Origin: Chlamydiota bacterium | Lineage (GTDB): Bacteria; Auribacterota; JACPWU01 | Length of the DNA: 32,000 bases | Direction: 5' to 3' | NCBI GenBank assembly: GCA_016196885.1 | Contig: JACPWU010000050.1 | Location: 1 to 32,000, forward strand | In this document: in pieces, positions 5,801 through 28,696 of the stretch | Position numbering within the stretch: position 1 is the first letter of the stretch | How the letters are laid out: each line of letters opens with the position of its first letter | Position numbers and translations under genes: made by a program | The notes under the pieces: generated by a model | What the model was told of the DNA's origin: nothing | Databases searched by the model: none | Seen by the model: only the letters and a program-made list of their open reading frames with translations

Positions 5801-5974
5801 GGACTTTTACCTCTGGCCCTCGGACAAGGTGAGGGAGGAGAATTAAAAGCACCCTTGGCCATCACCGTCGTAGGAGGACTTTTTGTTTCGACTTGTTTGA
5901 CACTGCTTCTCATCCCTTCCTTTTACATTATCGTTGAGGGTTTTTTGGAAAAATTTAGAAAAGAAAAAGCATAA
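2807..5974 (+). CDS. RND efflux transporter permease (AcrB/MdtB/CzcA superfamily), 1055 aa
   Basis: Typical N-terminus (SVRKPVTIMMLFFGMLFLG...LPQELLPEISYPKLTVVTTY) and length. Two large periplasmic loops and 12-TM architecture are apparent from the hydrophobic blocks. Confidence 0.95.
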   Translation: MSIAEFSVRKPVTIMMLFFGMLFLGLVCVSKLPQELLPEISYPKLTVVTTYANAAPEEVETLITKVIEESIATVRNLTRIHSSSKEGISLVTAEFSWDTNMDFAALAMREKIDLVKERLPHDAEEPIVKKINPTAKPMMLLSITGDYPIEEILRLTKKFIKDKIEKTEGVASAGISGGREREILVEVDKTKLRSVGIDLLEISKALSNSNRNYPAGSTKEKFYEYLLRTMGEFKNVPEMGETVIGVDDQERSLGEEEVTTPQARQEQEKGKYRRLVLLKNVAKIQDTFKEVESYSRYNGNENISVSIQKQPAANSIQTVQRVRKQIEELKPSLPKGLYIEVVDDESIFIKEAIKGIRDDGVQGVMLAFGVLFFFLKRLWPATIVSLTIPAGFMFVLICMFFAGVSLNIVSLMGLALSIGGIADAPIVVLENIYRRRSELEEDNLVSTIKGTNEVASAVTGGSLTAMAVFFPMIFLSGVEGQLLKQLAFSVIFCNAASNILCLTLVPKLAAQGKRAQKEIPSKFGLRVDRVMEKTREGYGHILEKFLERKGFFIGITLLLFLFTSWLMGHLNQELLPKVDKGKFSIEAKLKIGTRIEITNRVAKKIEEVVKKLPEFENYSVTVGSDRVKASEGAETLGSHEALITVSLKPKPPRKRSSNKIIQELKQELDKIDLEGAQITFASEESLFESALGGGGAAVAVEILGAEFPALEELAHEIEQKLKGIGGLYDIRDSIPEKAPETKIQINKDNAGLYDLSTNDIALTCQMAIKGTVATQFKEEGSEYPIRVRLQERDTDSTLKVNDLWIHSPQGYEVPLKEMATLEIGKAPSEVRRLEQRRVVLVFADLYGRALSEVESDIMLALQSIQLPQDYTVRLGGESAQKAKSLKALLTTILMSILLIYMLMASQFESLIQPFLIMFSVPFSVIGVAIALFLTGTSVNIFSMLGFITLGGMVTNNAIVMFEYINDLRTEGMALVEAVKKACKVRLRPILMSTLVTLIGLLPLALGQGEGGELKAPLAITVVGGLFVSTCLTLLLIPSFYIIVEGFLEKFRKEKA

Positions 5975-6008
5975 AATGAAACATACATATTCCCCCTGTT
6001 CAAGCTTG

Positions 6009-6066
6009 TGTAGCCGCCCGATTCATCGGGCAATCCATGTACGGCCCCATAAATGGGGCGACTACA
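6009..6066. repeat. REP-like palindromic element, copy 1 (tgtagccgcccgattcatcgggc...ccccataaatggggcgactaca)
   Basis: Imperfect inverted repeat seen directly. Near-identical copies lie at 19607-19670 and, interrupted, at 28391-28432 plus 28617-28631. Confidence 0.85.
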
Positions 6067-6103
6067 AACTCTTAATAACCGTACGCTATACACTCAATAA
6101 ATT

Positions 6104-9100
6104 ATGAGCCTTCCTTCTTTTTCTGTCAGAAAGCCGATCACAACGCTAATGCTCTTTACGGCATTAACGCTCTTCGGCCTCGTCGCCTTCTCCCGTCTCC
6201 CTGTCGAACTCATGCCCAACGCAAGCTATGACAAAATTACAATTCTTGTAGACATCCGAGGGGGCATGCCGCCCGTGGATGTCGAATTTCTGGTCACACG
6301 CCCGATCGAAGAAGCCCTGAGCAGCGTCACCCACTTGGAAAGCATTGCCTCCACCTCGAAAGAGGGAAAATCCACAGTGGTGTTGAGCTTTCCACCTGGA
6401 AGCGACATGGATTTCGCATCTTTGGAAGTGCGCGAAAAATTTGCAAAAGTCAAAAATAAACTTCCCCGTGAAGCAGAGAAACCCGTCATTGCCAAGTACG
6501 AAGAGTCCGATGCCCCCATCATGATCCTGGCCATCGCCAGCTTCATCCAAAGTACAGAAGAGATTCGAACTCTGGTGGAAGATCAAATTAAAGAGCGGTT
6601 GATGCGTATTCATGGCGTCGCCAATATTGAAGTGGGAGGAGGACGGGAAAGAAAAATCTTGGCGGAGATAGATCAAAAAAGAATTCAGGCGCTCAAACTT
6701 CCGATGGAAAAAGTGCTCGCCTCCATTTCCAAAAATAATCTCAATCTGATGGTCGGAAGCGTTGATAAAAATCGTTATAAAATTCTCTTGAGAACCATGG
6801 GTCAACTTCCTTCCATCGAGGCCATCAAAGAAATCCCCATTCTAAAAACGGATCAATTCTCTCTTGTAAGATTGAAAGACATTGCAGAAGTGAAAGATTC
6901 GTTTCTCGAAGCCACCACCTATTCCCGGACCAACAGCCAGGAAGTGGTTTCCCTTTATATTCAAAAAGAATCTACGGCTAACACCGTCAAGGTTTGTGAA
7001 CAACTTCAAAGTGAAATCGACGATATCGTCAAAGGACTGGGTAAAGACATTCGAGTCATCACCGTCAGCAATCAGGCGATTTTTATTCAACAAGCGATCA
7101 ATACCGTTTTAAAATCATTGCGTGACGGTGGTATTCTTGCCATCATCGTCCTCTTTATTTTCCTGAGAGATTTGAGATCCACCTTTTCGATCGCACTCTC
7201 CATGCCTATTTCAATCGTGGTCACCTTTGCCATGATGTATTTCAGTGGTCTTACGGTCAATGTTCAAACCTTGAGTGGACTGGCCTTGGGGATTGGAATG
7301 CTGACAGACAATGCCATCGTTGTGCTTGAGAATATTGACATCAAAAGAGCCAGGGGCATCCACCCGATTGATGCGGCCATTGAAGGAAGCCAGCAAATGC
7401 TCCTCGCCCTTGTCTCTTCAACAGCCACGACTGTGATCGTTTTTTTACCCATTGTCTTCATCAATAAGCAAATTCAACTGCTTTACCAAGGACTGGCCCT
7501 CACCGTGACTTATTCTTTGGTCGCCTCTCTCTTTACAGCTCTTTCCGTTGTCCCCCTCATGGCCTCTCGAGGCACACAAAACCTGAAAAAAAGAGTCGCA
7601 GGAGGTTTCCTAAGAAAAATCAGGAGGCTCTATCGCAAGAGCCTTTTTTATGCAGTGCGATACCGCTACCTCTCGATCGGCATCATCTTCTTCACCCTGT
7701 ACCTTGCGTTCACTTATATCGGAAGCTTGGATAAAGAGCTCCTCGCTTCTTCGGAAGAAGGAAAATTTACAATTTTTGTCGAGCTTCCTTCAGGTGCAAA
7801 ACTTGAAGTATCGGATATTGTTGTCAAACAGGTGGAAGAGATCGTCTCCAAAATTCCAGAAGTCCAGACAGTCTCTTCCCGTGTCGAGGGCTGGTCTTCC
7901 AAAGTCTATGTGGAGCTTGTTCCCGGAGACAAGAGGGAAAAATCCGTCGAGGAAATCATTGAAGAATTGCGGCCTCAATTTAAAGACTTGGGTGAAGCGC
8001 AGAGAGCTTTCATTTATTTTTCGGAATCTCGAGGCGGAGGATCTAAAGAAGTTCTAGTGGACGTCTATGGTTTTGATTATGCTACCTTAAAAAAGTTGGC
8101 CACTGAAATCGCCGGAAAGATGGAAAAGGTGAAAGGCCTCACAGACCTTAAACTGCGCATGAAAGAGGGAAGGCCCGAAATGCAAATCGTGATCGACAAA
8201 TATAAGGCCGCCCTCCATGGACTCTCAACCTACGATATTGGCGAAGAACTGCACGCCCAAATCCGGGGCAAGGAGGCCACTCGATTCCATTCCAAAGGTA
8301 AGGAAATAGAAACCATCGCTAGACTCCAGCAAAAGGACAGGGCCCATTTAAGCGACATTCGAAAGCTCACACTCGTGACACCCAAAGGAGAACTGATCGA
8401 ACTCAAAGATGTTTGTCAATTTAAAGAGGACATTGGCCCCAGCGAAGTTTGGAGAATGAATAAAACACGAATGATTCAAGTGAGTGCCAATCTCCACAAC
8501 CTCAGCATGGAAAAAGCGGCCGCCATGATTCGGGATTCTCTTAAAGACATGAGTTTTCCAAAGGATTACTATTACCTCTTTGGAGGAGATTATGCGCGGC
8601 AGATTGAAAACCAAAAGCAATTGTTGTTGGCTTTATGTATTACCATGGTTTTGATCTACATGCTCTTGGCTTCTCTCTTTGAGTCCTACTTCCAACCTTT
8701 TATCATCATGTCGGCCATTCCCTTATGCGCCATTGGGGTCGCCATTGCCCTGGGCATGACGCACACCACTATCAGCATGGGCGTCATGATCGGGGCCATT
8801 ATGTTGGGAGGCATTGTGGTCAATCACTCTATTGTCATGGTGGACCACATCAATTACGTCCGAAAATTTCACGGCTACGGTCCCTTTCGCTCGGTCGTCA
8901 GCTCAGGAATAGACCGTCTGCGTCCCATCATGATGACGGCAGCAACCACTACTTTAGGCCTCTTTCCCACAGCCATGGACAAAAGCCAAGGGGCCAGCCT
9001 TTGGAGCCCGCTGGCCATCACTGTGATCGGAGGCATCATCAGCTCTACCATCATGACCCTTTATATTGTTCCTAGCCTCTACATTATTTTTAGAGACATG

Positions 9101-9200: not shown

Positions 9201-10525
9201 GAAGGGGTATTTTTCGGAAAGACTTTAATATCCTTAGACGAGGTTTTTGAAAGACGCACCTCTTTATAATCTTCAAAGTGATATTTCTCCACCACATCTT
9301 GAACCACTTCTAAAGAAAGATCACAAAGGGTTTGAGGAATTTCTTTCATCGAACCTTGAGAAATTTTGAAATCGAAAAAGAAAGAAGGGGTGTGCTCTTT
9401 CTCACCCCCGTCGGTCAAATAATGACCTTTCACAGATTCTACCTTATAACCTAACGCGATCTTTTGAGAGGCCTCAGCTGGCTTCTTCTCTTTTTGCTTA
9501 CTGTTCGGCTCCATTTCCCGAGCTTTGCGGACAATGCGTTGTGCCATCTGGCTGACCAGAAATTGAGGAAGTGTAATGTCTTCCAACAGAAAATCCTGTT
9601 TGCTCCAAGTTTCAACATTCTGAAAAGCTCGATATTCGTCTGGAAAAGATTTTTTCTTAAGGGTCCCATCCTCATCCTTATAATCCAAGGGGATGATCTG
9701 ACGTATCTCCGGTAAATAATTTGAAGCTCCGATTACAAACAAATAATCATAAACAAAATCCGACGGAAAAGTAAAATCTTCTGGTTTATAACCTAATTTG
9801 GCTTCATAAGTTTCCCTCACCCGGCAATACACAAGAGCCCTCTCTTCAGGAATAGGTTTGGTCTTAATTTCTAAAATTTCAAAATGCACATTTTCTTTCA
9901 ATTTCATTTCTAAAATGGTTCTCAAGAAAGCCAGTGAAAATTCAGTGGAGTCTGAATTTTTTCTCAAATAATTGGCCAAGAGGGTTCGGCTGTTTCCCTT
10001 GGAAAGATTGGAGAAAAAATTGAGGACGGTTCTTTCAGCCAAAAGGGAAGGATTAAATCTTACATCTATTATCAGTCTCTGAAAAAAATCTTCCCGCGAA
10101 ACATTTCCGACGAGATATCTCTTCACATCATCTACATACCGAACAAAAACGGCCTCCACGCCTGGAATGGTTTTATCAGAAGCGACCACGGCAAAAAACT
10201 GCAGAGGCGCATCTGTGGAAAGGCTGATGCGGGTCACACCCAAAAGAAGGTCCCCAATATGTTCCGTCGCATCTTTGGTCAACCCTTGTTCTCGATCGAA
10301 AATATTTTCAAGAACAATATGAGCCCCCAAATTACGACCTACGATTTTTGCCTCGACATCAATCTTATACTCGTCCTGACACATCTTCTTGACAGAATCA
10401 AGAACCTTGCCTTCAGGAAAAGAGGGTTTGCCGCACCCTGAAAGGAGGAATAGACTCAAGAGGGAAAAGAGAGAAAGGACGACTGCGGAGAGGCGGTTTT
10501 GAAAATCCGAAAAAAAATTTACCAC
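9197..10525 (-). CDS. Putative lipoprotein, unknown function
   Basis: 442 aa ORF. N-terminal signal peptide with lipobox LLSGC (SLFLLSGCGKPSF). Confidence 0.75.
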   Translation of the reverse strand: MVNFFSDFQNRLSAVVLSLFSLLSLFLLSGCGKPSFPEGKVLDSVKKMCQDEYKIDVEAKIVGRNLGAHIVLENIFDREQGLTKDATEHIGDLLLGVTRISLSTDAPLQFFAVVASDKTIPGVEAVFVRYVDDVKRYLVGNVSREDFFQRLIIDVRFNPSLLAERTVLNFFSNLSKGNSRTLLANYLRKNSDSTEFSLAFLRTILEMKLKENVHFEILEIKTKPIPEERALVYCRVRETYEAKLGYKPEDFTFPSDFVYDYLFVIGASNYLPEIRQIIPLDYKDEDGTLKKKSFPDEYRAFQNVETWSKQDFLLEDITLPQFLVSQMAQRIVRKAREMEPNSKQKEKKPAEASQKIALGYKVESVKGHYLTDGGEKEHTPSFFFDFKISQGSMKEIPQTLCDLSLEVVQDVVEKYHFEDYKEVRLSKTSSKDIKVFPKNTPS

Positions 10526-10537
10526 AATAACATCACC

Positions 10538-12196
10538 TCAAACCTTCTTGGAATACTTCTCTCGGGCTGCAATCCCATGATCTTTCTCATATTCTTTAAA
10601 GATCGCCTCGATTTCATCATATTCCAATTCTTCCTTTGCTAAAAGCTCATTGGCAAAACGATCTAAAAGCGCTGCTTCACTTTTGAGCAATTCCTCCACT
10701 TCTTTCAAGCATTCATCCAAAATATCTTTGGTGTCACCGTTGAGCTCATGTTTCACTTGCTCTGAAAGCTGAGTTTCTGGAATCAGGGTATAATCCCCCA
10801 CATACCCTTTATTTCCCATTCCATACTTCCAAACCATATCATGGGCAACCGCCATGGCATGACGAAAATCAGAGGCCACCCCATTGGAGGTCACTCCAAA
10901 TTTAATTTTTTCACCCATATAACCGCCCAAGGCGACCTTAATGTCCGCCATAAAGCGATCCCGCCCATGCGTGTAAAAATCCTCACGCGGCTGATGATAG
11001 ACCACCCCTAATGTAGATTGGCGACTCGCAATGGAAGCCTTAAAAACATCGTCCGTCGGATGAAGAATGTACAGAACAATCAAATGACCTGTTTCATGAT
11101 AAGCCGTTTCACGACGTTCCTTATCCGACATTTCTCGTTTAATCTTCATCCCCAAATCAATTCTTTCAATGGCCGCTGATAAATCTTTATAGGTCACAAC
11201 ATCCCGTTTGTTTCGTGTGGCAATAAGCGCCGCCTCTTTAATCACACTTTCAATTTCGGCCGGGCTCTTCTCCACTGATTTTCGGGCCAGGTGTCCCACG
11301 TCAATCGTAGGATCATGCTTCACCTTGTCCAAATAAAATTTAAAGAGCTTTTCCCTGCCGGAAAGACCTGGCTTGGCAATATAAATTTTTCGGTCGAAAC
11401 GGCCTGGCCTTAAGAGGGCCTGATCCATGATATTTTCAATGGCGTTGGTGGCCCCCATGACCACGATGCTACCTGCCCCTTCTAAACCATCCATTTCGAC
11501 CAGCAATTGATTCAAGGTGCTGTCCGTTTCAAGACCTCCGCCAAAAGAACCGAAGGATCTTCTTCGGCCAATGGCATCTAATTCATCAATAAAAATAATG
11601 CATCCGCCATGGGCATAGGACAATTTACGGGCCTTGCCAAAAAGCTGTCTCACTCGACTGGCACCCACCCCGACAAAAACTTCCACAAACTCGCTTCCTG
11701 AGATGGAAAGAAAGGGAAGAGCCGCCTCTGTCGCAATCGCCTTGGCGAGAAGAGTTTTACCGCATCCGGGAGGTCCAATCAGCAAAATCCCTCTTAAGAT
11801 TCTGCCCCCGATTTGCTTTAGCTTGGTTCTGTCCTTAATCAACTGTACGACTTCCCAAGCCTCATCTTTGGCCTCATCAATTCCAATCACTTGGTCAAAG
11901 TGAATATTGACCTCATCGGCCTTGACCTTGCTTTTCTTCATTTTAGAAAAGCCACCTCTAAAAACCGCCATGTAAAGGTATACAAAAATGACCGCGTTCA
12001 AGGCCACCATCAGAAGCTGAATCGGCATGGTCGCCAATGTCATATTTCGATAGAAGGACTCTAGTGACCTTAAACCCCAGATGGACAAGATGATAAGGAG
12101 AACGGTGAGAAAGGTGACCAAGATCGGCACCCAATAGTTCATCATGAATATCTTTAATTTTCGATGGATTTTCATAGGATGTATATAACCTAACAT
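10538..12196 (-). CDS. ftsH: FtsH-family AAA+ zinc metalloprotease paralog with a short extracytoplasmic loop
   Basis: Two N-terminal TM segments. Walker A GPPGCGKT, Walker B IIFIDELD, second region of homology ATNAIENIMDQALLRPGRFD, and the M41 zinc motif HETGH. Confidence 0.88.
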   Translation of the reverse strand: MLGYIHPMKIHRKLKIFMMNYWVPILVTFLTVLLIILSIWGLRSLESFYRNMTLATMPIQLLMVALNAVIFVYLYMAVFRGGFSKMKKSKVKADEVNIHFDQVIGIDEAKDEAWEVVQLIKDRTKLKQIGGRILRGILLIGPPGCGKTLLAKAIATEAALPFLSISGSEFVEVFVGVGASRVRQLFGKARKLSYAHGGCIIFIDELDAIGRRRSFGSFGGGLETDSTLNQLLVEMDGLEGAGSIVVMGATNAIENIMDQALLRPGRFDRKIYIAKPGLSGREKLFKFYLDKVKHDPTIDVGHLARKSVEKSPAEIESVIKEAALIATRNKRDVVTYKDLSAAIERIDLGMKIKREMSDKERRETAYHETGHLIVLYILHPTDDVFKASIASRQSTLGVVYHQPREDFYTHGRDRFMADIKVALGGYMGEKIKFGVTSNGVASDFRHAMAVAHDMVWKYGMGNKGYVGDYTLIPETQLSEQVKHELNGDTKDILDECLKEVEELLKSEAALLDRFANELLAKEELEYDEIEAIFKEYEKDHGIAAREKYSKKV

Positions 12197-12321
12197 TTAA
12201 AGATGAAGAGCGTCAAGTAAATCAGCCAATTAACCTCTTCTTAGCCAACATTTATCGACTAAAATTTATTCCCGTAAAAAACTGAAAGGGCCCCCGATGT
12301 ACACCGGAGGCCCCCCTTTTA

Positions 12322-12547
12322 CAAGTCAGCTCATTAAGTTTTATCCACTCAATTCTGACAGTACTAATCCCACAGGGACTATAAAAACATGGGATAAGAA
12401 GTCTCAACGAAATAGTACCGATCCTTAAAGAAGAATAATCAAAAGGTACAACGAAATAGTACCTCTCATTAAAAAAGATTAATAAAAAGGTACAAAACTG
12501 CATCGTTAAAGAGATGACCCATGTATGGTGGAATATGGCCTCCTTAG
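12322..12547 (-). mobile_element. Non-autonomous (MITE-like) element, copy 1, 226 bp, flanked by TA on both sides
   Basis: Reverse complement is nearly identical to 28433-28614 except for one extra 44 bp internal module. TA at 12320-12321 and 12548-12549. Lies in the intergenic gap between the 12573 gene and ftsH. Confidence 0.75.
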
Positions 12548-12572
12548 TAAGTCAAATTGCTGGATCAAAAAA

Positions 12573-14522
12573 TTACTTTTTCTTCAAATCCTCCATTTGG
12601 ACATACATCGTCTCTTTAATGCCGTGGTTTTCATTAACCGCCTCTACCGCAATAGATTTAAAAACACGCAGAGACTCCAAAAAAGGAATCACATTTTCTT
12701 GAATGATTTGATCTGTTTGAGCTCCTGCCTCTCCTCGACCCTTCTGTAAGTTATTTGCCCAATTTGTAATATCAATCACCACCTGAAGGGTCTTTTCCAT
12801 ATTTAAAAAAGCGACTTGATTGACCTTGGGACTGAAATCGGCAGTGGTGGACCTAAAAGCTGAATCTTCAGTCACGGCCTTAGAAGTTCCCTTGCTTACA
12901 TCAATGACATGCTTAACGCTGTCTTTGTTGATGCCAATCACCAAGAAATTATTCACCAAGGCATAAGAAGGATTCAAAGTCTGATAAGGAAGTTGAACCT
13001 CCAAAAAGTGGATGTTCACCCCATTGTATTCTTCCTCACTGACCTTGATTTGCCCTAACAAAGAAGGAGAAGGAGTAGGTTGAGGGGAGGAAAGAAGGGC
13101 TGTGTCTCCCTCTGTATTTTCAGAGAGCCCAGCCGTTTGGCCTGCTGGAGCGCTCACTCCTTCTGGAGCTGACTTATGAACCGCATAATCCGCTATTTTC
13201 TGCATCCCCTCCAAGGCCTTCCCACCATCCTTCACCTTTGCCAAGAAAACCAGATGAGGAAACGGGAAAAGCCCGCTCATGTCCACGTTGGTAATCGAGA
13301 AACAAACCTCGTCGTCCAACCAGCTCAAAATATCTTGTTTAATTTGAACACCCGAATCCTTTTCAAAGCTCGCGAGTCCATCCAAAATAGCCTTGGCTTG
13401 ATCGGCATTTTGAGTTTCAAGATTCTTCTGCCAAACATCCCAAATCTTCATGAAGTCAATGGAATTAGAAACCGTCAGGAGAAGACTGTCCTCCGGTAAA
13501 TATTTGAGAGACTGCGTTTCCTTGGGTAAGGAGTCCCAACCCGTGAGAAGCTGACCCTGAGGTGAAGCCGCCGCAACCTCTTGATTCTTCACAAAGAAAA
13601 GCTTGACCAACATCCCCCGATCAAAGCCAACAGCTGCTGCAACCGACTTGATCGTTCCCAAGGTTTGCTCCAGACCCTCGGTAAAACCCTTGGGGGTACC
13701 TTCTGGAGCCGGCATTGCCTTAATGAGATCTACAATCTTTGACATGTTGACAAAGATAATTCCGCGAAGATCTCCGCGAATCTTGAGAGCTCCGACCGCA
13801 TCTTTATATTGGGTGCTACTTCCCAATGCTTCCATTGACTTCTTAGAAACCAAATCCGCCACTTTACGAATCCCTGTATCATCTACACCAATGGTTAGAG
13901 CAAAGATATCTCCAATGATGGCATAATTAAACTCAGGTCCCGGCACATTAGGATTTCTAAGCCGAGAAATTTTCTGACCATTGTATTCAACCTCTTCCAC
14001 GGTCACAGTGGGCTTAACTTTTTCAACCAACGCACTCATCTTACCCTGAATGTCCACTTTAGGATCCGTCTTGGCCATCAACAAAAGTTGAGGATTGGCC
14101 AGACCTTCTTTGCTCCCCAAAAGAGCAATGCTCAAGTCCTGGCCAAAAAGACCCAAAACATTCTCTTCTGTCAAATCAAAACCCATATTGGTTTTGAACT
14201 GATCTTTAAAATTTTTGAGTCCCATTCCCAACTGAGCAGATTCCCATATTTTCAAAGAAGAGGCCTGCTGCCAAAAATTCGAATTTTTGATCAAATCCCA
14301 TGTGGAACGAGTGTTTCGAGCAGAGAGAAAAACCACCACATCGCTCGGAACCACATCTGCAATGGCCACACCTGAATAAGAAGAAAGCGCTTCTGTAACA
14401 GGTCGTTCAACACCCGAAGGACCCTCGACACCGGCCGTTCTCGACTTAACTACTTTGAGAGCAACAAAAGCACCCACCGCGACAACAGCAACAATAACAA
14501 TTCCTAAAATACCTTTTTTCAT
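12573..14522 (-). CDS. Membrane-anchored or secreted hypothetical protein (about 649 aa from the preferred start)
   Basis: Long ORF. I prefer the ATG at 14522 (MKKGILGIVIVAVVAVGAFVALKVV), which is preceded by AAGGAG, over the listed 14570 start. Confidence 0.75.
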   Translation of the reverse strand: MKKGILGIVIVAVVAVGAFVALKVVKSRTAGVEGPSGVERPVTEALSSYSGVAIADVVPSDVVVFLSARNTRSTWDLIKNSNFWQQASSLKIWESAQLGMGLKNFKDQFKTNMGFDLTEENVLGLFGQDLSIALLGSKEGLANPQLLLMAKTDPKVDIQGKMSALVEKVKPTVTVEEVEYNGQKISRLRNPNVPGPEFNYAIIGDIFALTIGVDDTGIRKVADLVSKKSMEALGSSTQYKDAVGALKIRGDLRGIIFVNMSKIVDLIKAMPAPEGTPKGFTEGLEQTLGTIKSVAAAVGFDRGMLVKLFFVKNQEVAAASPQGQLLTGWDSLPKETQSLKYLPEDSLLLTVSNSIDFMKIWDVWQKNLETQNADQAKAILDGLASFEKDSGVQIKQDILSWLDDEVCFSITNVDMSGLFPFPHLVFLAKVKDGGKALEGMQKIADYAVHKSAPEGVSAPAGQTAGLSENTEGDTALLSSPQPTPSPSLLGQIKVSEEEYNGVNIHFLEVQLPYQTLNPSYALVNNFLVIGINKDSVKHVIDVSKGTSKAVTEDSAFRSTTADFSPKVNQVAFLNMEKTLQVVIDITNWANNLQKGRGEAGAQTDQIIQENVIPFLESLRVFKSIAVEAVNENHGIKETMYVQMEDLKKK

Positions 14523-16524: not shown

Positions 16525-16611
16525 GAATATCTCCCCAAAAGAATGAAAATCTAACCCCTCCAACCCCCCTTAAATTAAGGGGAGAGTCAAAAACTCACCT
16601 CACTCAAAAGA

Positions 16612-16652
16612 GAGAGTTCTCCCCTCTTATTTAAGAGGGGTTGGGGGAGTTA
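16612..16652. repeat. 41 bp repeat containing the palindrome cccctcttatttaagagggg, copy A
   Basis: gagagttctcccctcttatttaagaggggttgggggagtta matches 18025-18064 with a few substitutions plus a one-base length difference (41 versus 40 bp). It overlaps the hisS stop and its last 9 codons. Confidence 0.8.
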
Positions 16653-17934
16653 ATTCATTTGTTTTTGATAACTGGTTTTTTATTTGGCTTAAAATAATTT
16701 CAACAACGTGCTCTGCGCTTACTTCTTCTTCCATACCGGAAACCATATTTTTCAATTTCACCACTTTGCGAGCGATTTCATCTTCTCCCCGGATCAGAAC
16801 ATATTTAACTCCCAATTTGTTGGCACGTCGAAATTGGGACTTAAAGCTTTTGGCTTCATAATCTATTTCAGAGAGAATACTCAATTTTCTCAATTCTTTC
16901 TGCAAAAGAAAATTGAGTTGAAAGGCCTGTTCACCTAAACTCGCTAAAAAAAGAAAAGGTCGAACGGGCAAAATTTTTCCCTCGAGTTCGTTTTGCAAGG
17001 CCAAAAGCATTCGTTCCATTCCCATTCCAAAACCTACGGCACAGACGGAAGGCCCACCCAAGGACTCGACCAAATGATCGTAGCGCCCGCCTGCTGCAAT
17101 TGCGTCTTGAGCCCCTAAATTTGCATGAGTTACTTCAAAAATGGTTCGCGTGTAGTAATCCAGACCTCTAACCAATTTGGGAGCCAATGTAAAAGAAACA
17201 CCCAATTCAGCCAAAAGCAACTCCACCTGGTCAAAATGATTTCGGCAATCCTGACAAATCACATCGGGCAACAGAGGAATATTTTCAAGCGCTGCCTGAC
17301 AAATTTCATTTTTGCAATCAAGCACCCGAAGTACATTTTTTTCAAACCGACGCTGACAATTTCCGCAAAGCGCATGGACCTTGGACTTCAGAGACTCCTT
17401 CAAAAGCTCTCCATATTTGGGCTTGCAGACACGACAACCCACACTGTTGACCTTGAAATGGGCTCCCGAAAGACCCATTTCACTCAAGAAACTGGATAAA
17501 AGATCTATCACCTCTACATCTAGCGAGGGATGCCCAGAACCCAAGACTTCAACCCCAATTTGATGAAACTGACGCAACCTCCCTTTTTGAGGCCTTTCAT
17601 GACGAAACATGGGGCCTATGTAAAACAATTTTTGAACACGATCCTCATGGGCAAGGTTATGTTGCAAAAAACTTCTCACCACAGGGGCAGTCGCTTCAGG
17701 TCTTAAAGTAATGCCCATTCCCCCTTCTTCGGGAATAGTGTACATTTGCTTTTCAACAATGTCCGTGGTCTCTCCCACCGATCGAATAAAAAGCTCTGTC
17801 TCTTCAAAGATGGGCGTTCTGATTTCCTCATACCCATAGCGACCAAAAACGCTTCTCGCTTTTTCTTCCAGGAAGCGCCACCTCATGACTTCTTGAGGCA
17901 AAATATCGTTGGTCCCTCGAACGGCTTGGATCAT
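16627..17934 (-). CDS. hisS: Histidyl-tRNA synthetase
   Basis: MIQAVRGTNDILP start, FRHERPQKGRLRQFHQ motif 2, GGRYD and the C-terminal anticodon-binding region. Confidence 0.95.
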   Translation of the reverse strand: MIQAVRGTNDILPQEVMRWRFLEEKARSVFGRYGYEEIRTPIFEETELFIRSVGETTDIVEKQMYTIPEEGGMGITLRPEATAPVVRSFLQHNLAHEDRVQKLFYIGPMFRHERPQKGRLRQFHQIGVEVLGSGHPSLDVEVIDLLSSFLSEMGLSGAHFKVNSVGCRVCKPKYGELLKESLKSKVHALCGNCQRRFEKNVLRVLDCKNEICQAALENIPLLPDVICQDCRNHFDQVELLLAELGVSFTLAPKLVRGLDYYTRTIFEVTHANLGAQDAIAAGGRYDHLVESLGGPSVCAVGFGMGMERMLLALQNELEGKILPVRPFLFLASLGEQAFQLNFLLQKELRKLSILSEIDYEAKSFKSQFRRANKLGVKYVLIRGEDEIARKVVKLKNMVSGMEEEVSAEHVVEIILSQIKNQLSKTNELTPPTPLK

Positions 17935-18024
17935 AAAGAACCCATTTAACCCCTCCAGCTCCCCTCAAGATTTTCTAGTCCCCGTGGGATTAAACTAAAG
18001 GGGAGGGAAAACCCCTTTCATAGT

Positions 18025-18064
18025 GAGAGTCCCCCCTCTTATTTAAGAGGGATTGGGGGAGTTA
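18025..18064. repeat. Palindrome-containing repeat, copy B
   Basis: gagagtcccccctcttatttaagagggattgggggagtta, same orientation as copy A, about 90 nt upstream of the hisS start. Confidence 0.8.
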
Positions 18065-18163
18065 TTTCCTATAATTTTTTCCGTTTATTTTTTCCTTTAA
18101 AAACAAAATCCCATTCTATGCACTTCAAATACTTTACGCAAGACGATAAGAACATAACTTTTT

Positions 18164-18212
18164 AAAAAAAGGGTCCAGTAACCAGGGTCCAGGCTCCCCG
18201 ATCACTGGACCC
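18164..18212 (-). terminator. Rho-independent terminator of the ATPase/STAS module
   Basis: 9 bp stem gggtccagt / actggaccc (18171-18179, 18204-18212). On the minus strand it is followed by a run of seven T (A-run 18164-18170). It lies 13 nt after the stop at 18225. Confidence 0.7.
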
Positions 18213-18224
18213 TGATCTCTTTCC

Positions 18225-18539
18225 TCAATCTTCCTGTGTTTCAATTCCCATGCCCTCCTGCATATAGTCCACAACAATCCCAATAATTTTTTTAACTGTT
18301 TCATTGCAAGATTTAAAAAGAATATGTTCCAATGCATGGTCAATTCCATATTTACGCAGTATATCGCTAATAAGCGCATGAACAAAAGATTGAGTTGCTG
18401 CCTCTACGCCCTCAAAATCAAGAGTGATTTCCTCATTGCAAGTCAATGCAGGAATAATTTCATTGATTCGGATGTCTCTTGCAATATCCTTATTCTCGGC
18501 AAAAGTTCCAGCCTTATTAAAAATAGAAATGCTTTTCAT
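18225..18539 (-). CDS. DUF4325 / STAS-like domain protein, 104 aa
   Basis: The segment ITLDFEGVEAATQSFVHALISDIL matches my memory of the DUF4325 (STAS-like) signature (LDF.GV....SF..E). Its start overlaps the upstream gene stop by 4 nt (ATGA). Confidence 0.75.
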   Translation of the reverse strand: MKSISIFNKAGTFAENKDIARDIRINEIIPALTCNEEITLDFEGVEAATQSFVHALISDILRKYGIDHALEHILFKSCNETVKKIIGIVVDYMQEGMGIETQED

Positions 18540-19498
18540 ATAAACCTCGGCTTCTTATATCTGGCTTTCCTCCGTTCTCGAATAGCACTTGTGTACGTCT
18601 TATGGATGGCATCTAATAAAAGTGAAAATTCTTTGGTTTGATCAAGGGTGATATCAACCCCTACCACTGTCCCCTGCCAATAGGGAAGATCACCCTCCGT
18701 TGAATGCCTATCCTTAAATGGATCCGCGTTCAAACGTAATCGAGAACTGGGAGGTCTCTTAAGCAACTTATAAAATCCATTTCCACTGTAAATGACAAAA
18801 AAATCTCGGCTCGCCCCTACAATCGATTTGATAAAAAAAAGACCCGCTCCTGCATTTTGCTCAGTTCCACCTTCTCTGCGAGTCGTTCCGGTAATCCCAG
18901 GCCGAAGAGCGAGTTGAATAGCTTCTAAGTCAGTTGTTGCAGAATAGGCTTGATTAATCGTTTTTTTAATACCCACACCTGTATCAGCAATTCCTATTCG
19001 GATGGCATTACTCTTTACGTAGTATTGAGCACATAGAAAAGCTCCATGCTCGGAACTAGCATGCTCTATGACATTGCGTACCAGTTCACTAACGATGTAT
19101 CCAATGGTTTTAGCCTGATCAAACCCAAGATGCAATAAAGGAATCATTTCTGTCATAAATTTCGTAAGCTCGTCTGAAGTACGAATCTGTGTTATAGGGA
19201 TGAAACGACCGGCTGGCTCATGCTCTACAACTCTTATGACTGATGGTATGTTCAATATCCTGAACAAACCCATACGTACAAGATAATGTTTTGATTTAGC
19301 TTCTAAGGGCACGCATTTTATGTGATCAGGCCTCACCCGTACACCCAGAGCCGCAATCATTGACAAAACAACAGGATGAACTGAAATCCATTTTTCATTG
19401 GCCGTAATTTCAAGGGAATCTGATCCAGAAGGATCAAATCCCCTTAGAAAGGGGTCAATATTTCCTAGGAATGCACTATTAGGAAGATGAATTTTCAT
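18536..19498 (-). CDS. GHKL-superfamily ATP-binding protein (SpoIIAB/RsbW-like HATPase fold) with an unknown N-terminal domain of about 130 aa, 320 aa
   Basis: N-box SELVRNVIEHA, G1 IADTGVGI, G2 NAGAGLFFI. There is no HisKA/H-box, so it is not a classical histidine kinase. Confidence 0.8.
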   Translation of the reverse strand: MKIHLPNSAFLGNIDPFLRGFDPSGSDSLEITANEKWISVHPVVLSMIAALGVRVRPDHIKCVPLEAKSKHYLVRMGLFRILNIPSVIRVVEHEPAGRFIPITQIRTSDELTKFMTEMIPLLHLGFDQAKTIGYIVSELVRNVIEHASSEHGAFLCAQYYVKSNAIRIGIADTGVGIKKTINQAYSATTDLEAIQLALRPGITGTTRREGGTEQNAGAGLFFIKSIVGASRDFFVIYSGNGFYKLLKRPPSSRLRLNADPFKDRHSTEGDLPYWQGTVVGVDITLDQTKEFSLLLDAIHKTYTSAIRERRKARYKKPRFI

Positions 19499-19504
19499 AC
19501 TTCG

Positions 19505-19557
19505 AATTTACCAGGAATCCAGGTATATGTCAATATTACCGGGATTCCTGGTAAATT
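19505..19557 (-). promoter_or_regulatory. Sigma-70-type promoter embedded in a 16 bp perfect inverted repeat (candidate operator)
   Basis: aatttaccaggaatcc (19505-19520) is the reverse complement of ggattcctggtaaatt (19542-19557). On the minus strand, TTGACA (19533-19528), a 17 nt spacer and TAAATT (19510-19505) end 6 nt before the ATG at 19498. Confidence 0.55.
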
Positions 19558-19606
19558 TTCACCTTCTTTGTAACAAGTTTAGCTTGTACCTCTCAAGTCA
19601 ATTCTT

Positions 19607-19670
19607 TGTAGCCGCCCGATTTATCGGGCAAATTCATGCAAGGGGCTGCCCCATAAATGGGGTGACTACA
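19607..19670. repeat. REP-like palindromic element, copy 2
   Basis: tgtagccgcccgatttatcgggc...ccccataaatggggtgactaca, between the rnhC stop and the module promoter. Confidence 0.85.
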
Positions 19671-19693
19671 AAAGCTTCAAGGTAGGCGTTTGT

Positions 19694-20676: not shown

Positions 20677-20982
20677 TCATCTTAACTTCTTTACCTCACT
20701 GATGAAAAAAGATTTTATTTGTTTCCACGGGACTTCTTTTAACATCTTTGGCATTTCTTCAGGCTCTGCATCTTCAAAATGACCGAGATGGGAAAGTTGA
20801 TTGGAAAGCTGTGTTGGGTTAAACGGTTTGGGCGTAAAGAAATCAAAATCAACCGAGATTCGATGCCCCAATTGCAAGGCTAACGCCGTCCCCCCAGCCA
20901 GATAAGTCTCTTTGAGAAGACCGGACTGTCCTAATAAGGCCAAACAATTCCGGGATCCTTGGACAAGTGTCTCTTCAAACAT
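20677..20982 (-). pseudogene. Truncated or internally deleted AbiEii/AbiGii-type nucleotidyltransferase (type IV TA toxin family) remnant, 101 aa
   Basis: The signature YLAGGTALALQLGHRISVDFDFF is present, but the protein is far shorter than the usual family length as I recall it (roughly 200-300 aa). Confidence 0.55.
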
Positions 20983-21225: not shown

Positions 21226-21269
21226 GTATTTAAAAGTGTGTCCTTTTAAAAGGACACACTTTTAAATAC
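21226..21269. repeat. 44 bp perfect palindrome downstream of otsB (possible terminator or element scar)
   Basis: gtatttaaaagtgtgtcctttt followed by its exact reverse complement. Flanked by the direct repeat cataaaccg at 21211-21219 and 21275-21283. Confidence 0.8.
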
Positions 21270-21296: not shown

Positions 21297-22106
21297 TCAA
21301 GTCACTTTATCTCGATAAAATGACCTCACAGGGAATATTATCTGGTTTAAAAAATCAAGAACCTCCTTGGGGGACTGAACATAATGAGAGGCGTATGATT
21401 TTTTGGAAAGCCCCACGCGGACAGTGAGACTCTTTGATTTTAGAACGCGAAACACATCTTCATCGGTTTGATCATCCCCGATATAAATTTTAAAAGCATC
21501 TCGAGAAAGATTTTTAACACGGCCCATTTTTAAAAGAGCCTTTCCCTTATCCCAATTTGTCCGGGGTCGAATTTCAAAAACTTTTTTACCTGAAGTCAGT
21601 TTGATTTGTTTTAAGTGAGAAGAAAGAATGTGATGCACTATTTTTTTAAGATATGGAATTTGTTGCAAAGACACATCACGATAATGCACCGTTAAGGTTG
21701 CCTTTTTATTCTCAATAAAAATTCCTGGAAAACAAGAAAGTCCCCGTTTTAGTTTTTTTAAAATCTCTCGATAAAGAGGTTTGAGTTTCTTGGACAGGGG
21801 ATGCGTCCAGGTTTTCTTGCCCCACTTCATTTCAAAACCGTGATTGGCAATGAAAAGAATCTTCGGAAGTGGAATCAATTTAAGAATGGAGTCCATGGAC
21901 CGGCCCGTCACAATGCATAAAATGATTTTCGGATTTTTCGAAAGTTTTTTCAGCAGTGAAAGAGAATTAAGAGAAAGTCTCGCTTCTTGAGGTTTTGAAA
22001 CGATCGGGGCAAGCGTCCCATCATAATCTAGAGCTAAAAAAACCTGAGACGCGCCGTGAATCTGACAAAGATGGGACTCGAGCTCACGCCTTCCTAAGGA
22101 TTTCAC
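21297..22106 (-). CDS. otsB: Trehalose-6-phosphate phosphatase (HAD family)
   Basis: HAD motif I LALDYDGTL, motif IV GDDQTDEDVF, size 269 aa, and operon context with otsA. Confidence 0.85.
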   Translation of the reverse strand: MKSLGRRELESHLCQIHGASQVFLALDYDGTLAPIVSKPQEARLSLNSLSLLKKLSKNPKIILCIVTGRSMDSILKLIPLPKILFIANHGFEMKWGKKTWTHPLSKKLKPLYREILKKLKRGLSCFPGIFIENKKATLTVHYRDVSLQQIPYLKKIVHHILSSHLKQIKLTSGKKVFEIRPRTNWDKGKALLKMGRVKNLSRDAFKIYIGDDQTDEDVFRVLKSKSLTVRVGLSKKSYASHYVQSPKEVLDFLNQIIFPVRSFYRDKVT

Positions 22107-28317: not shown

Positions 28318-28696
28318 AGCGTTTAGCGGGTAGAAAAAAATTTTATTTTAGGCATATGCACTTGACTCAAGTATTCTTGATCCGTCAAGCGTAGTCGCCC
28401 GATTTATCGGGCAATCCATGCGTGGCCCCATACTAAGGAGGCCATATTCCACCGTACATGGATCATCTCTTTAACGATGTAGTTTTGTACCTTTTGATTA
28501 TTCTTCTTTAAGGATCGGTACTATTTCGTTGAGACTCCTTATCCCATGTTTTTATAGTCCCTGTGGGATTAGTACTGTCAGAATTGAGTGGATAAAACTT
28601 AATGAACTGACTTGTAAATGGGGCGACTACAAATGGACGGCATCTTTAAGTCAAGTGCATATGCCTATTTTATTTTAATAGCACCGGCTAAACGCT
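28318..28696. repeat. Composite palindromic locus: outer long inverted repeats enclose a REP-like element that is itself split by a MITE-like insertion
   Basis: Outer arms agcgtttagcgggt / accggctaaacgct and aggcatatgcacttgac (28351-28367) / gtcaagtgcatatgcct (28651-28667). REP halves at 28391-28432 and 28617-28631. Confidence 0.8.
28433..28614 (+). mobile_element. Non-autonomous (MITE-like) element, copy 2, 182 bp, flanked by TA on both sides
   Basis: It interrupts ccccata|aatgggg, which is contiguous in the two intact REP copies. TA at 28431-28432 and 28615-28616. Reverse-complement match to 12322-12547. Confidence 0.8.

Follow-up and report, generated by a model that had tools for sequence, protein, structure and literature searches.

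A two-gene kinase–STAS cassette with a conserved operator, shared by bacterial and archaeal genomes and very probably related to CapK–CapS and VapK–VapS

Switches composed of a DNA-damage-sensing GHKL kinase and a STAS substrate, attached to different effectors, were described by Chambers et al. (EMBO J 2026; PMC13373217), with 289 VapKSC and 443 CapKS loci being reported. CapK (from "controller of associated pathways") combines a helix-turn-helix (HTH) with a STAS and a GHKL domain, is switched on by single-stranded DNA (ssDNA), and phosphorylates Ser54 of CapS, a STAS protein with a winged HTH (wHTH). The phosphorylation splits the CapS dimer, leading to de-repression of capS and the downstream immune operon, and CapKS autoregulates via palindromes overlapping its promoter (PMC13373217). 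VapKSC of Escherichia sp. E4736 is a stand-alone operon for the STAS-GHKL kinase VapK, the STAS protein VapS with a short C-terminal helix, and the PIN toxin VapC; VapS is the antitoxin and loses this function in the S48E mutant, and, against one phage, the system confers a protection of about 2 logs (PMC13373217). In both CapK and VapK, the STAS-GHKL arrangement forms an ssDNA groove (PMC13373217). Matelska et al. (2017) had described the PIN.4 group of VapC proteins as "transcriptionally coupled to DUF4325 genes". Here, we describe a related pair of genes, called K and S, in a 32,000-nucleotide stretch of DNA (the window) from a Chlamydiota bacterium (contig JACPWU010000050.1, positions 1 to 32,000). 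A first reading of the window from its letters only (the sequence-only reading) had held that such a pairing has no experimentally defined function. This is out of date, as CapK–CapS and VapKSC, whose kinases are homologous to K and of which the latter has a DUF4325 partner like S, have been characterised (PMC13373217).

The locus is an autonomous, horizontally transferred cassette of about 1.3 kb, consisting of two palindromic boxes with a promoter, the K gene, whose mRNA is predicted to be leaderless, the coupled S gene, and a local terminator, all on the minus strand. K (18536..19498) encodes a VapK/CapK-like Ser/Thr kinase of the GHKL superfamily with 320 residues, and S (18225..18539) encodes a protein of 104 residues with a single DUF4325 (VapS-type) STAS domain. 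An ATGA overlap joins the stop codon of K to the start codon of S, in agreement with the sequence-only reading, and the Shine-Dalgarno motif of S (GAGG) sits within the 3' end of K. We regard it as very probable that the pair belongs to the CapK–CapS/VapK–VapS kinase–STAS superfamily. The comparisons below draw on a pooled set of 106 related loci, 23 of them from species-representative genomes, 80 from metagenomes, and 3 from exact-protein look-ups, where the metagenome loci are the best 80 and all come from the clade with 63-81% identity.

K is a STAS-like domain fused to a SpoIIAB-type GHKL kinase domain with intact catalytic residues. The kinase domain (residues 108-284; 18647..19177) carries the N-box residues E138 and N142, the G1 motif D172xGxG, and the G2 motif G217AG. 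The residues E138, N142, D172-G174-G176, and G217-A218-G219 are invariant in an alignment of 107 sequences, and the catalytic and ATP-binding residues are invariant also in an alignment of homologues with 27-49% identity. The AlphaFold structure predicted from the 107-sequence alignment (predicted local distance difference test [pLDDT] 81, predicted template modelling score [pTM] 0.85) matches SpoIIAB in a Foldseek search of the PDB (1thn_A and 1l0o_A; probability 1.00, TM-score on target 0.66), besides other GHKL ATPases. In the Pfam scan, HATPase_c_2 matches K with an E value of 4.6e-6 and 27.1 bits, a borderline result just under the gathering cut-off of 27.4 bits; no HisKA or H-box family matches K, and no HTH family matches K or S. 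The GHKL core with its three motifs and the missing H-box, both noted in the sequence-only reading, are borne out by these results, and of the two profile assignments that it had proposed to check, DUF4325 scores above its cut-off (see below) and the HATPase family at the border. The best NCBIfam matches of K are the anti-sigma F and anti-sigma B factors, which lie far below the cut-offs of these equivalog models (23 bits versus 135), so K is not a SpoIIAB or RsbW orthologue.

The N-terminal region of about 130 residues had been called unassignable. Judging from the structure model, the domain is STAS-like and starts at residue 1 (residues 1-105; 19184..19498): Foldseek superposes it on RsbV (PDB ID 6m36_C) with a probability of 0.99, a TM-score on target of 0.58, and a root mean square deviation of 2.1 Å over 78 columns, and the distant phage homologue P0241 (Marinitoga phage MPV1_51) matches Pfam STAS above the gathering cut-off at residues 20-88. 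In a motif comparison by eye, H41-P42 stands where STAS substrates have their acceptor Ser, which would mean that this domain is not itself a substrate. F10 and W37 are its conserved aromatic residues. The CapK residues W68, K237, and K239 and the VapK residue F54 were also mapped onto K by eye, with K162 of the motif YYxKSN as a plausible match to CapK K237 and F10 or W37 as candidates for the aromatic residue, and no claim was drawn from this mapping.

The kinase domain is followed by a helix of 29 residues and a basic tail, RERRKARYKKPRFI, with a net charge of about +6 (residues 285-320; 18539..18646). The tail consensus …RKKxRYKKPRF[ITA] is kept across the subfamily and is recognisable in most members down to about 30% identity; helix and tail are specific to the subfamily, and VapK lacks them. 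K as a whole is basic, with an isoelectric point (pI) of 9.6 and a net charge of +11. The distant homologues MPV1_51 and the Alicyclobacillus pAACI02 protein are without the basic tail and the operator, and their C-termini are formed by an acidic stretch with a terminal Trp (…DEDFDEEW and …DYMMDDLW), which suggests that this branch has another interaction motif at the C-terminus. A homology search seeded with the Marinitoga phage kinase returned only that protein.

The second protein, S, matches the Pfam family DUF4325 (PF14213) with an E value of 1.3e-13 and 50.9 bits, with a cut-off of 23 bits, as the sequence-only reading had proposed. It is acidic (pI 4.8, net charge -8), and its homologues have 96-108 residues, ending with ...IVVDYMQEG as soon as the final STAS helix is complete. 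The 23 aligned sequences of the window and the genome loci share the conserved motifs G-FAENKD, LDFxGVxaATQSFxHAL, and IVxxYMQE, with several invariant positions, and Ser51 is invariant among them as well. To view S next to K, a structure was modelled from the natural fusion P0062 with an alignment of 10 K rows; the K part is poor (pLDDT 51, pTM 0.33), and the S part is good (pLDDT about 90). In the S part, the Ser of the QSF motif occupies the first turn of helix α2, the same position as the phospho-acceptors of SpoIIAA, CapS, and VapS. Ser51, within the motif EGVEAATQSF (codon 18387..18389), is hence the best candidate phospho-acceptor of S, with T49 as an alternative.

The CapK, CapS, VapK, and VapS sequences were taken from the appendix of Chambers et al. 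and compared with our profiles using hhalign. The K profile A3 aligns with VapK at a probability of 97.2% (E=4.2e-11, 30% identity, K residues 130-284), and the match of the K profile to CapK has a probability of 92.8% (E=4e-7). The K/CapK alignment takes in the linker motif between STAS and kinase domains (SKHYLVRMGLF aligned with SAKNYLNRLGFF), which is not a generic GHKL feature. The S profile matches VapS with an E value of 2.8e-5. VapS itself is matched by PF14213 (E=2.7e-17), and CapS is not a member of this family; the acceptor motif of S is nonetheless closest to that of CapS (EGIVATDSS54F in CapS and EGVEAATQS51F in S). Sequence searches of the PDB with S and with the K profile returned neither CapS nor VapS nor another significant match.

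K and S always travel together, are sometimes fused, and have no third gene associated with them. S lies directly downstream of K in 22 of 22 loci and then in all 89 loci with room for S, so the co-occurrence check suggested by the sequence-only reading came out in favour of a unit; the two genes overlap by 4 nt in 62 of these 89. Natural K–S fusions are found in P0062, P0251, P0375, and P0389, and phrog_5816 is a family of such fusions. Among 961 open reading frames (ORFs) on 791 kb of the 106 loci, K and S are the sole recurring families, the next family being present in 6 loci. A hidden third ORF inside the cassette was considered and rejected, as the search showed no alternative frame to be conserved as open. 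The similarity between loci at the DNA level is confined to about 1.32 kb, beginning at the upstream box and ending with the stop codon of S. The window has an intrinsic terminator after S (18163..18213) with an 18-bp stem, an 8-nt loop, and a T-run, as read earlier from the letters; its sequence is not kept in the other loci, where the DNA homology stops at the S stop codon.

The cassette is widespread. A word-indexed search of 5.8 billion proteins gave 3075 matches (E ≤ 0.001), the best 120 of which are 74-100% identical and come, where the source is named, from Chlamydiota, Omnitrophota, Elusimicrobiota, Spirochaetota, Saganbacteria, and Deltaproteobacteria; when the representatives of clusters at 50% identity were searched, 2667 matches were obtained. 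The genome scan adds Planctomycetes, Nitrospira, Bdellovibrionales, and Saccharibacteria, as well as archaeal lineages, where cassettes in metagenome-assembled genomes (MAGs) of Methanosarcinales, Thermoplasmatales, Iainarchaeia, and Aenigmatarchaeota are 54-69% identical. Across the bacterial and archaeal phyla, the proteins are 54-83% identical. The nonsynonymous divergence (dN) is 0.22 for K and 0.28 for S, with the synonymous divergence (dS) mostly saturated, and the GC content of the cassette follows that of the host from 31% to 61%, with a few laggards. The picture is that of many, mostly old transfers under strong purifying selection. The unit of about 1.3 kb is found in unrelated neighbourhoods in many phyla and not at one fixed position beside a cognate sigma factor or phosphatase, as an ordinary stress switch would be. 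A single-sequence scan of IMG/VR found nothing, the alignment-based scan found three contigs, which belong only to a clade with 45% identity, and the plasmid search yielded 5 distant matches only.

The region upstream of K is the second conserved part of the cassette. A 17-bp palindromic box, TACCGGGAWTCCCGGTA, was present upstream of K in every locus of the first inspection. The window has two tandem copies of this self-palindromic box, which flank the -35 hexamer TTGACA (19528..19533): box 1 (TACCAGGAATCCCGGTA; 19537..19553) lies directly upstream of the hexamer, and box 2 (TACCTGGATTCCTGGTA; 19509..19525) fills the spacer between -35 and -10 and abuts the -10 hexamer TAAATT (19505..19510), which is TATAAT in most relatives. 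The promoter-like site as a whole (19533..19505) reads TTGACA-17-TAAATT with a TG extension. A single match of this kind is not significant alone, with 3 sites found and 4.7 expected; we take the promoter as real because it is conserved in related loci, TTGAC being kept at the -35 position in 63 of 104. The private promoter of the sequence-only reading is therefore retained. The perfect inverted repeat in which it had been placed is complementary at 20 of 21 positions and resolves into the two palindromic boxes.

The two boxes in the window compare with 0.03 expected by chance, and neither the rest of the window nor the DNA flanking the cassette in the 23 genome loci has a further copy. Allowing 2 mismatches, 98 of 104 upstream regions contain one box or more and 56 contain two or more, with the box core starting most often at -54 (box 1) and -26 (box 2) relative to the K ATG. 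The box has been kept in spite of a synonymous divergence that has reached saturation in 23 of 25 comparisons for K and in 19 of 25 for S. The 28-bp phasing of the starts (-82, -54, -26) suggests that several protein units may bind cooperatively along one face of the DNA. A third, degenerate box is seen about 28 bp upstream of box 1 (about -80 to -100) in L008, L012, L015, L017, L018, L019, and L023.

The boxes are kept in two promoter designs. All 17 loci from bacterial MAGs have two boxes, or one and a degenerate second, around a -35-like hexamer (TTGACA in most), and their -10 hexamer lies 6-10 nt before the start codon, without a Shine-Dalgarno motif; likewise, 6 nt (CGAAGT) separate the -10 hexamer from the K ATG in the window, and K lacks a Shine-Dalgarno motif. 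Five of the six archaeal MAG loci, from Methanosarcinales (two), Thermoplasmatales, Iainarchaeum, and Aenigmatarchaeota, have a full box at about -57 and a TATA box (TTTATAAA) at about -33, and in the sixth, from an unclassified archaeon, two boxes enclose an A/T-rich element. The TATA type occurs in at least 21 of 104 loci, many of which have a half box, (A)TTCCCGGTA, 3-5 nt before the K ATG. The archaeal-type layout is stereotyped (e.g., L062, L067, L073, L082, L087, and L105), with the full box being followed by AAAATAG, the TATA box, and the half box, which would overlap the predicted transcription start.

From the distance between the -10 or TATA element and the ATG in both designs, the K mRNA is predicted to be leaderless in bacteria and archaea alike. 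Two K homologues in public databases, P0006 and P0053, have N-terminal "extensions" (…GNPGNVDI-RDSRY…) that are the operator and promoter translated in frame; these are mis-called start codons, for which the predicted leaderless design would account. In the homologues with about 25% identity that phages and plasmids carry, the leaders are ordinary ones with a Shine-Dalgarno motif, and such boxes are absent.

As the operator survives the replacement of the σ70 hexamers by a TATA box, the persistence of the boxes would be most simply explained by recognition through a protein encoded in the cassette itself. The phage clade with 45% identity (L029-L031) has the layout of the window, with an inverted repeat that flanks TTGACA, abuts TATAAT, and leaves 6 nt to the ATG; its box sequence is a different one, TACCCGTAGATCGTA. 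This is the one additional clade on which a co-variation of operator and protein rests, and a region-by-region comparison of its proteins with those of the window did not single out a specificity-determining region. Two other explanations for the palindromes were rejected. Recombination sites do not fit, as both boxes are on one side of the cassette, phased with the promoter elements, and nothing is present at the 3' end; in an ssDNA hairpin promoter of the "Frpo type", the -35 hexamer would fall in the loop. A search of the palindromes against Rfam gave sub-threshold noise only.

For the function of the cassette, we tentatively favour, at slightly less than an even chance, a composite in which it is a self-repressed kinase switch, triggered by ssDNA and phosphorylating Ser51 of S, with K itself as the output. 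By homology to CapKS and VapKSC, K would be inactive until it meets a nucleic-acid cue, most likely ssDNA arising from DNA damage or from the replication of an invading element, and this cue would bind between the STAS and kinase domains. Activated K would phosphorylate Ser51, which would change what S binds and release it from its partner. The anatomy of the control region suggests that a protein encoded in the cassette binds the palindromes and represses the operon, keeping the pair poised at a low level; as no HTH is present, our best guess for this operator reader is the basic K with its C-terminal helix and tail, alone or with S. K would be restrained by unphosphorylated S and be free to act once S is phosphorylated. 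As no effector is attached, the output is most probably K itself, and the archaeal distribution suggests a target common to both domains of life, a nucleic acid or a universal protein, with a sigma factor being excluded. The outcome could be growth arrest or a behaviour resembling abortive infection, as in a reverse-order toxin–antitoxin (TA) pair.

Several points weigh against this composite. Each of its mechanistic steps is an analogy with proteins that are about 30% identical in the kinase domain, and hhalign left the N-terminal domains of K and of VapK and CapK unaligned. The residue that stacks on ssDNA (W68 in CapK, F54 in VapK) has no confident counterpart in K. The register of the acceptor Ser differs by one residue between the hhalign comparison with VapS and the comparison with CapS, and the P0062 fusion model, given its K part with a pLDDT of 51, provides no usable K–S interface. 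K and S have no recognisable DNA-binding domain and S is acidic, making the identity of the operator reader a guess, and leaderless transcription is predicted from spacing alone. Stable K–S fusions would be unusual for a classical TA pair. The neighbours in the related loci are mostly housekeeping genes (for formyltransferase, GatA/B, gyrase, DprA, TopA, ComEC, pyrophosphatase, and others), so guilt by association does not support a role in defence, and PADLOC gave no system-level match.

A further-reaching version of the composite, which we consider possible but doubtful, is that of a minimal "universal" immune or addiction unit for Bacteria and Archaea, in which K would be sensor, autorepressor, and effector at once, and S an inhibitor released by phosphorylation. 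The autorepression would work through the basic C-terminal helix and tail of K and would need no classical DNA-binding domain. Its portability would come from the leaderless mRNA, the self-recognised operator, and the exchange of the core promoter (σ70 versus B recognition element [BRE]/TATA). If this were true, kinases of the CapK/VapK family would have a mode of operation not described before, and the cassette would provide a rare and clearly documented example of a regulated gene unit that is maintained across both prokaryotic domains.

The strongest rival is a transcriptional controller like CapK–CapS, which would act in DNA damage on downstream or distant genes bearing the box and have no toxic or effector activity of its own. 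CapK–CapS is such a regulator and is autoregulated via palindromes overlapping its promoter, as they do in the cassette too. The next gene downstream is on the same strand in about 12 of 19 genome loci, and the gene after the pair is hisS in the window as well as in L003; the shared hisS synteny was considered as a site preference and rejected, two hisS neighbours in 23 loci being compatible with chance (estimate about 0.1). We consider this controller unlikely, as no downstream family recurs in the 106 loci, a strong terminator follows S in the window, the box is absent elsewhere in the 32-kb window and from the flanks of the 23 genome loci, and a wHTH is missing from S, as is an HTH from K.

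The pair could also serve nothing but its own addiction, as a reverse-order TA pair of the type II kind in which K would be a kinase toxin and S its labile pseudosubstrate antitoxin; it would persist through post-segregational killing, with no need for ssDNA sensing or a role in defence. Its K–S fusions misfit an antitoxin that needs to be degraded, most copies are chromosomal and lie between housekeeping genes, plasmids yielded the 5 distant matches only, and there is conservation of the STAS-GHKL architecture, from which CapK and VapK form their ssDNA groove. These points make such a module rather improbable to us, even if it would account for a small unit of two overlapping genes, counted as autoregulated from the palindromes on its promoter, for the extensive horizontal spread under strong purifying selection, and for the TA-like genes that some loci have nearby (VapBC-like pairs, seen in L001 and L018, as well as MNT, Fic, and, on an Acinetobacter plasmid, BrnTA); the S-family protein of VapKSC is, moreover, an antitoxin.

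The sequence-only reading had compared the pair to SpoIIAB/SpoIIAA or RsbW/RsbV, a partner switch in which K would be the anti-sigma factor for a sigma factor encoded elsewhere. What remains of this likeness is the orphan GHKL kinase with a STAS-like partner, the structural matches to SpoIIAB and RsbV, the anti-sigma F/B models as best NCBIfam matches (at 23 bits versus 135), and one locus, L033, with genes for a SpoIIE-type PP2C and a STAS protein two genes upstream. Archaea have no sigma factors, and cassettes with 54-69% identity and TATA promoters are found in archaeal MAGs, which effectively excludes a switch directed at sigma. No sigma factor or PP2C recurs in the 106 loci, in line with what had been noted for the window, and none is enriched among 111 flanking proteins; SpoIIAB also lacks the N-terminal STAS domain and the C-terminal tail of K. 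A classical partner switch is thus very improbable. That the cassette is a decayed, non-functional remnant of VapKSC or of a larger system, such as a DISARM variant, which lost its effector is hardly credible: K and S normally serve an effector in VapKSC and the DrmA variant (see below), and a decayed AbiEii fragment lies nearby in the window, but there are more than 3000 close homologues, the 106 inspected loci agree in their two-gene layout and have intact ORFs, dN stays much lower than dS, which is saturated, the VapC-inhibiting helix is missing from S family-wide, K gained a conserved tail, and promoter and operator are conserved.

The genomic setting of the cassette is that of a clearly mobile and accessory element, found in unrelated neighbourhoods and with relatives on phage, prophage, and plasmid, and the association with defence islands is only weak; the accessory placement claimed in the sequence-only reading thus holds, and the defence part of it does so only weakly. 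A minority of neighbours are accessory or TA-like: PIN/VapBC-like pairs, Fic, MNT nucleotidyltransferase, a small GIY-YIG protein, AAA_14/DUF4143, AAA_21/OLD-like proteins, and the AbiEii fragment in the window. The VapBC-like pairs near the cassette in L001 and L018 are separate pairs and not adjacent third genes. On a siphovirus-like IMG/VR contig, the cassette of the clade with 45% identity is a moron, with head genes on one side and the tape-measure gene on the other. Distant pairs are located in the lysogeny modules of the Marinitoga phage MPV1 and the Francisella phage KIRK and adjoin insertion sequence (IS) elements on an Alicyclobacillus plasmid, and an Acinetobacter plasmid of 6.8 kb has a K-like gene next to BrnTA, without an annotated S gene adjoining it.

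Some neighbourhoods deserve mention in their own right. In Marinitoga phage MPV1 (L025), the gene directly upstream of K/S (2825-3940) is annotated as a "chromosome segregation ATPase" and is really a DUF4041 + T5orf172/MUG113 protein, a type frequent among accessory or defence genes; the block has genes for a CI-like repressor and a methyltransferase on one side and a serine integrase gene on the other. Genes for DNA uptake or ssDNA handling adjoin the pair in three loci, namely, DprA with TopA in L032 and ComEC in L033 and L026; the stretches concerned are 11282-14297 (L032), 4900-6816 and 9707-12115 (L033), and 5011-6630 (L026). Their presence, like that of the SpoIIE-type PP2C and STAS genes in L033, is probably a coincidence, though a notable one for a kinase predicted to sense ssDNA.

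In the window, the cassette has hisS and aspS on one flank and rnhC (DUF3378 + RNase_HII) on the other, the housekeeping genes named in the sequence-only reading. The AbiE-type module that it had seen nearby is present as well, on the rnhC side: an ORF of 101 residues (20677..20982, minus strand) matches the first ~50 of the 238 positions of the AbiEii profile (E=2e-7) and is a truncated AbiEii toxin remnant, with no AbiEi partner ORF evident upstream of it. A perfect 44-bp palindrome with 22-nt arms and no spacer, GTATTTAAAAGTGTGTCCTTTT|AAAAGGACACACTTTTAAATAC (21226-21269), lies between this fragment and the next gene (21297-22106) and could be a bidirectional terminator or an operator.

The repeats bracketing the cassette, also reported from the letters, exist and are not special to it. 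They belong to two dispersed intergenic families resembling repetitive extragenic palindromic (REP) elements, with the forms GTAGCCGCCCGATTYATCGGGCAA…GCCCCATAAATGGGGYGACTACAAA (family 1) and TCYCCCCTCTTATTTAAGAGGGRTTGGGGGAGTTA (family 2), located at positions 6000-6073, 19598-19677, 28381-28432, and 28609-28638, and also at 16549-16666 and 17944-18078. One copy of each family flanks the cassette, and the copy at 16549-16666 lies between aspS and hisS. As such repeats are found in other intergenic regions of the window too, they belong to the host genome, and we rejected them as ends of the cassette. In addition, a segment of ~245 bp occurs twice in inverted orientation, 16 kb apart (12308-12549 and 28431-28628), with 144 nt at 97% and 101 nt at 91% complementarity, and the stretch between the copies takes in the cassette. 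The second copy is inside an element of ~320 bp that looks like a miniature inverted-repeat transposable element (MITE), with 22-nt terminal inverted repeats (28349-28370 and 28646-28667).

In environmental data, the kinase–STAS module is far more abundant in the form of this cassette than as VapKSC (289 loci) or CapKS (443 loci). The cassette has no effector attached, so the output is either the kinase or an action of the switch on some universal target, and resolving this output would show the ancestral or minimal function of the module. The cassette is, furthermore, a natural experiment in gene transfer between domains, in which the coding sequence and the 17-bp operator were kept and the core promoter was rebuilt for each RNA polymerase. 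With a leaderless mRNA predicted in both, it offers a compact system for studying the portability of regulated genes between Bacteria and Archaea. It may also point to sequence-specific DNA recognition by a protein pair without a recognisable DNA-binding domain. For annotation, the Pfam family DUF4325, phrog_3364, phrog_5816, and the N-terminus of the PADLOC DrmA model become linked to the VapS and VapK families. This last link comes from the DrmA model PDLC02567 (1750 positions), which K matches at positions 75-246 and S at 325-392 only; the match is confined to the N-terminal K–S-like part, and there is no DrmA helicase in the cassette. Some DISARM DrmA helicases thus appear, from these profile matches, to carry a fused K–S-like N-terminal module, a pairing that is not among the associated systems in the CapKS/VapKSC paper (PMC13373217).

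Among the known systems, SpoIIAB–SpoIIAA and RsbW–RsbV share with the cassette the kinase domain and the STAS fold, as seen with Foldseek, and a kinase acting on a STAS Ser, which for K and S would follow by inference; they differ in that the cassette has no linked sigma factor or PP2C, has a K with a STAS-like domain of its own, and is mobile and present in archaea. Reverse-order type II TA pairs (HigBA, HicAB, and BrnTA) and kinase toxins (HipBA) resemble it in their overlapping genes, in the palindromic operators on the promoter, in their promiscuous horizontal transfer, and in their insertion between housekeeping genes and on mobile elements. Unlike them, the cassette has no antitoxin domain binding DNA, its K is large with 320 residues, and natural K–S fusions exist.

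CapK–CapS is similar in its GHKL kinase with a preceding STAS domain, in a nearly identical acceptor motif, and in palindromes overlapping its own promoter. However, the HTH at the CapK N-terminus and the wHTH at the end of CapS have no counterpart in K and S. CapKS also lies upstream of an immune operon (Bub, CBASS, Thoeris, and others), whereas nothing is conserved downstream of the cassette, and the operator half-sites are unrelated, being TTAA in Cap and TACCGGGA in the cassette. The similarity to VapKSC includes a STAS-GHKL kinase without HTH, homologous kinase domains, a small DUF4325 partner, the order of K before S, a conserved Ser at the start of STAS helix α2, and a stand-alone operon that is not the regulator of a neighbouring system. 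The differences from VapKSC are that no VapC/PIN third gene is adjacent to the pair in any of the 106 loci, that S is without the VapC-blocking C-terminal helix (VapS residues 94-116; VapS has 23 further residues), that K has the additional long C-terminal helix with its conserved basic tail, and that the cassette, archaeal as well as bacterial, is preceded by palindromic operator boxes that are conserved and is predicted to have a leaderless mRNA. This kind of system has therefore been known since 2026, and what the locus adds to it is a form without effector and without HTH, with a new C-terminal tail on the kinase, an own conserved operator, and a predicted leaderless mRNA, which is kept across Bacteria and Archaea with the core promoter rebuilt.

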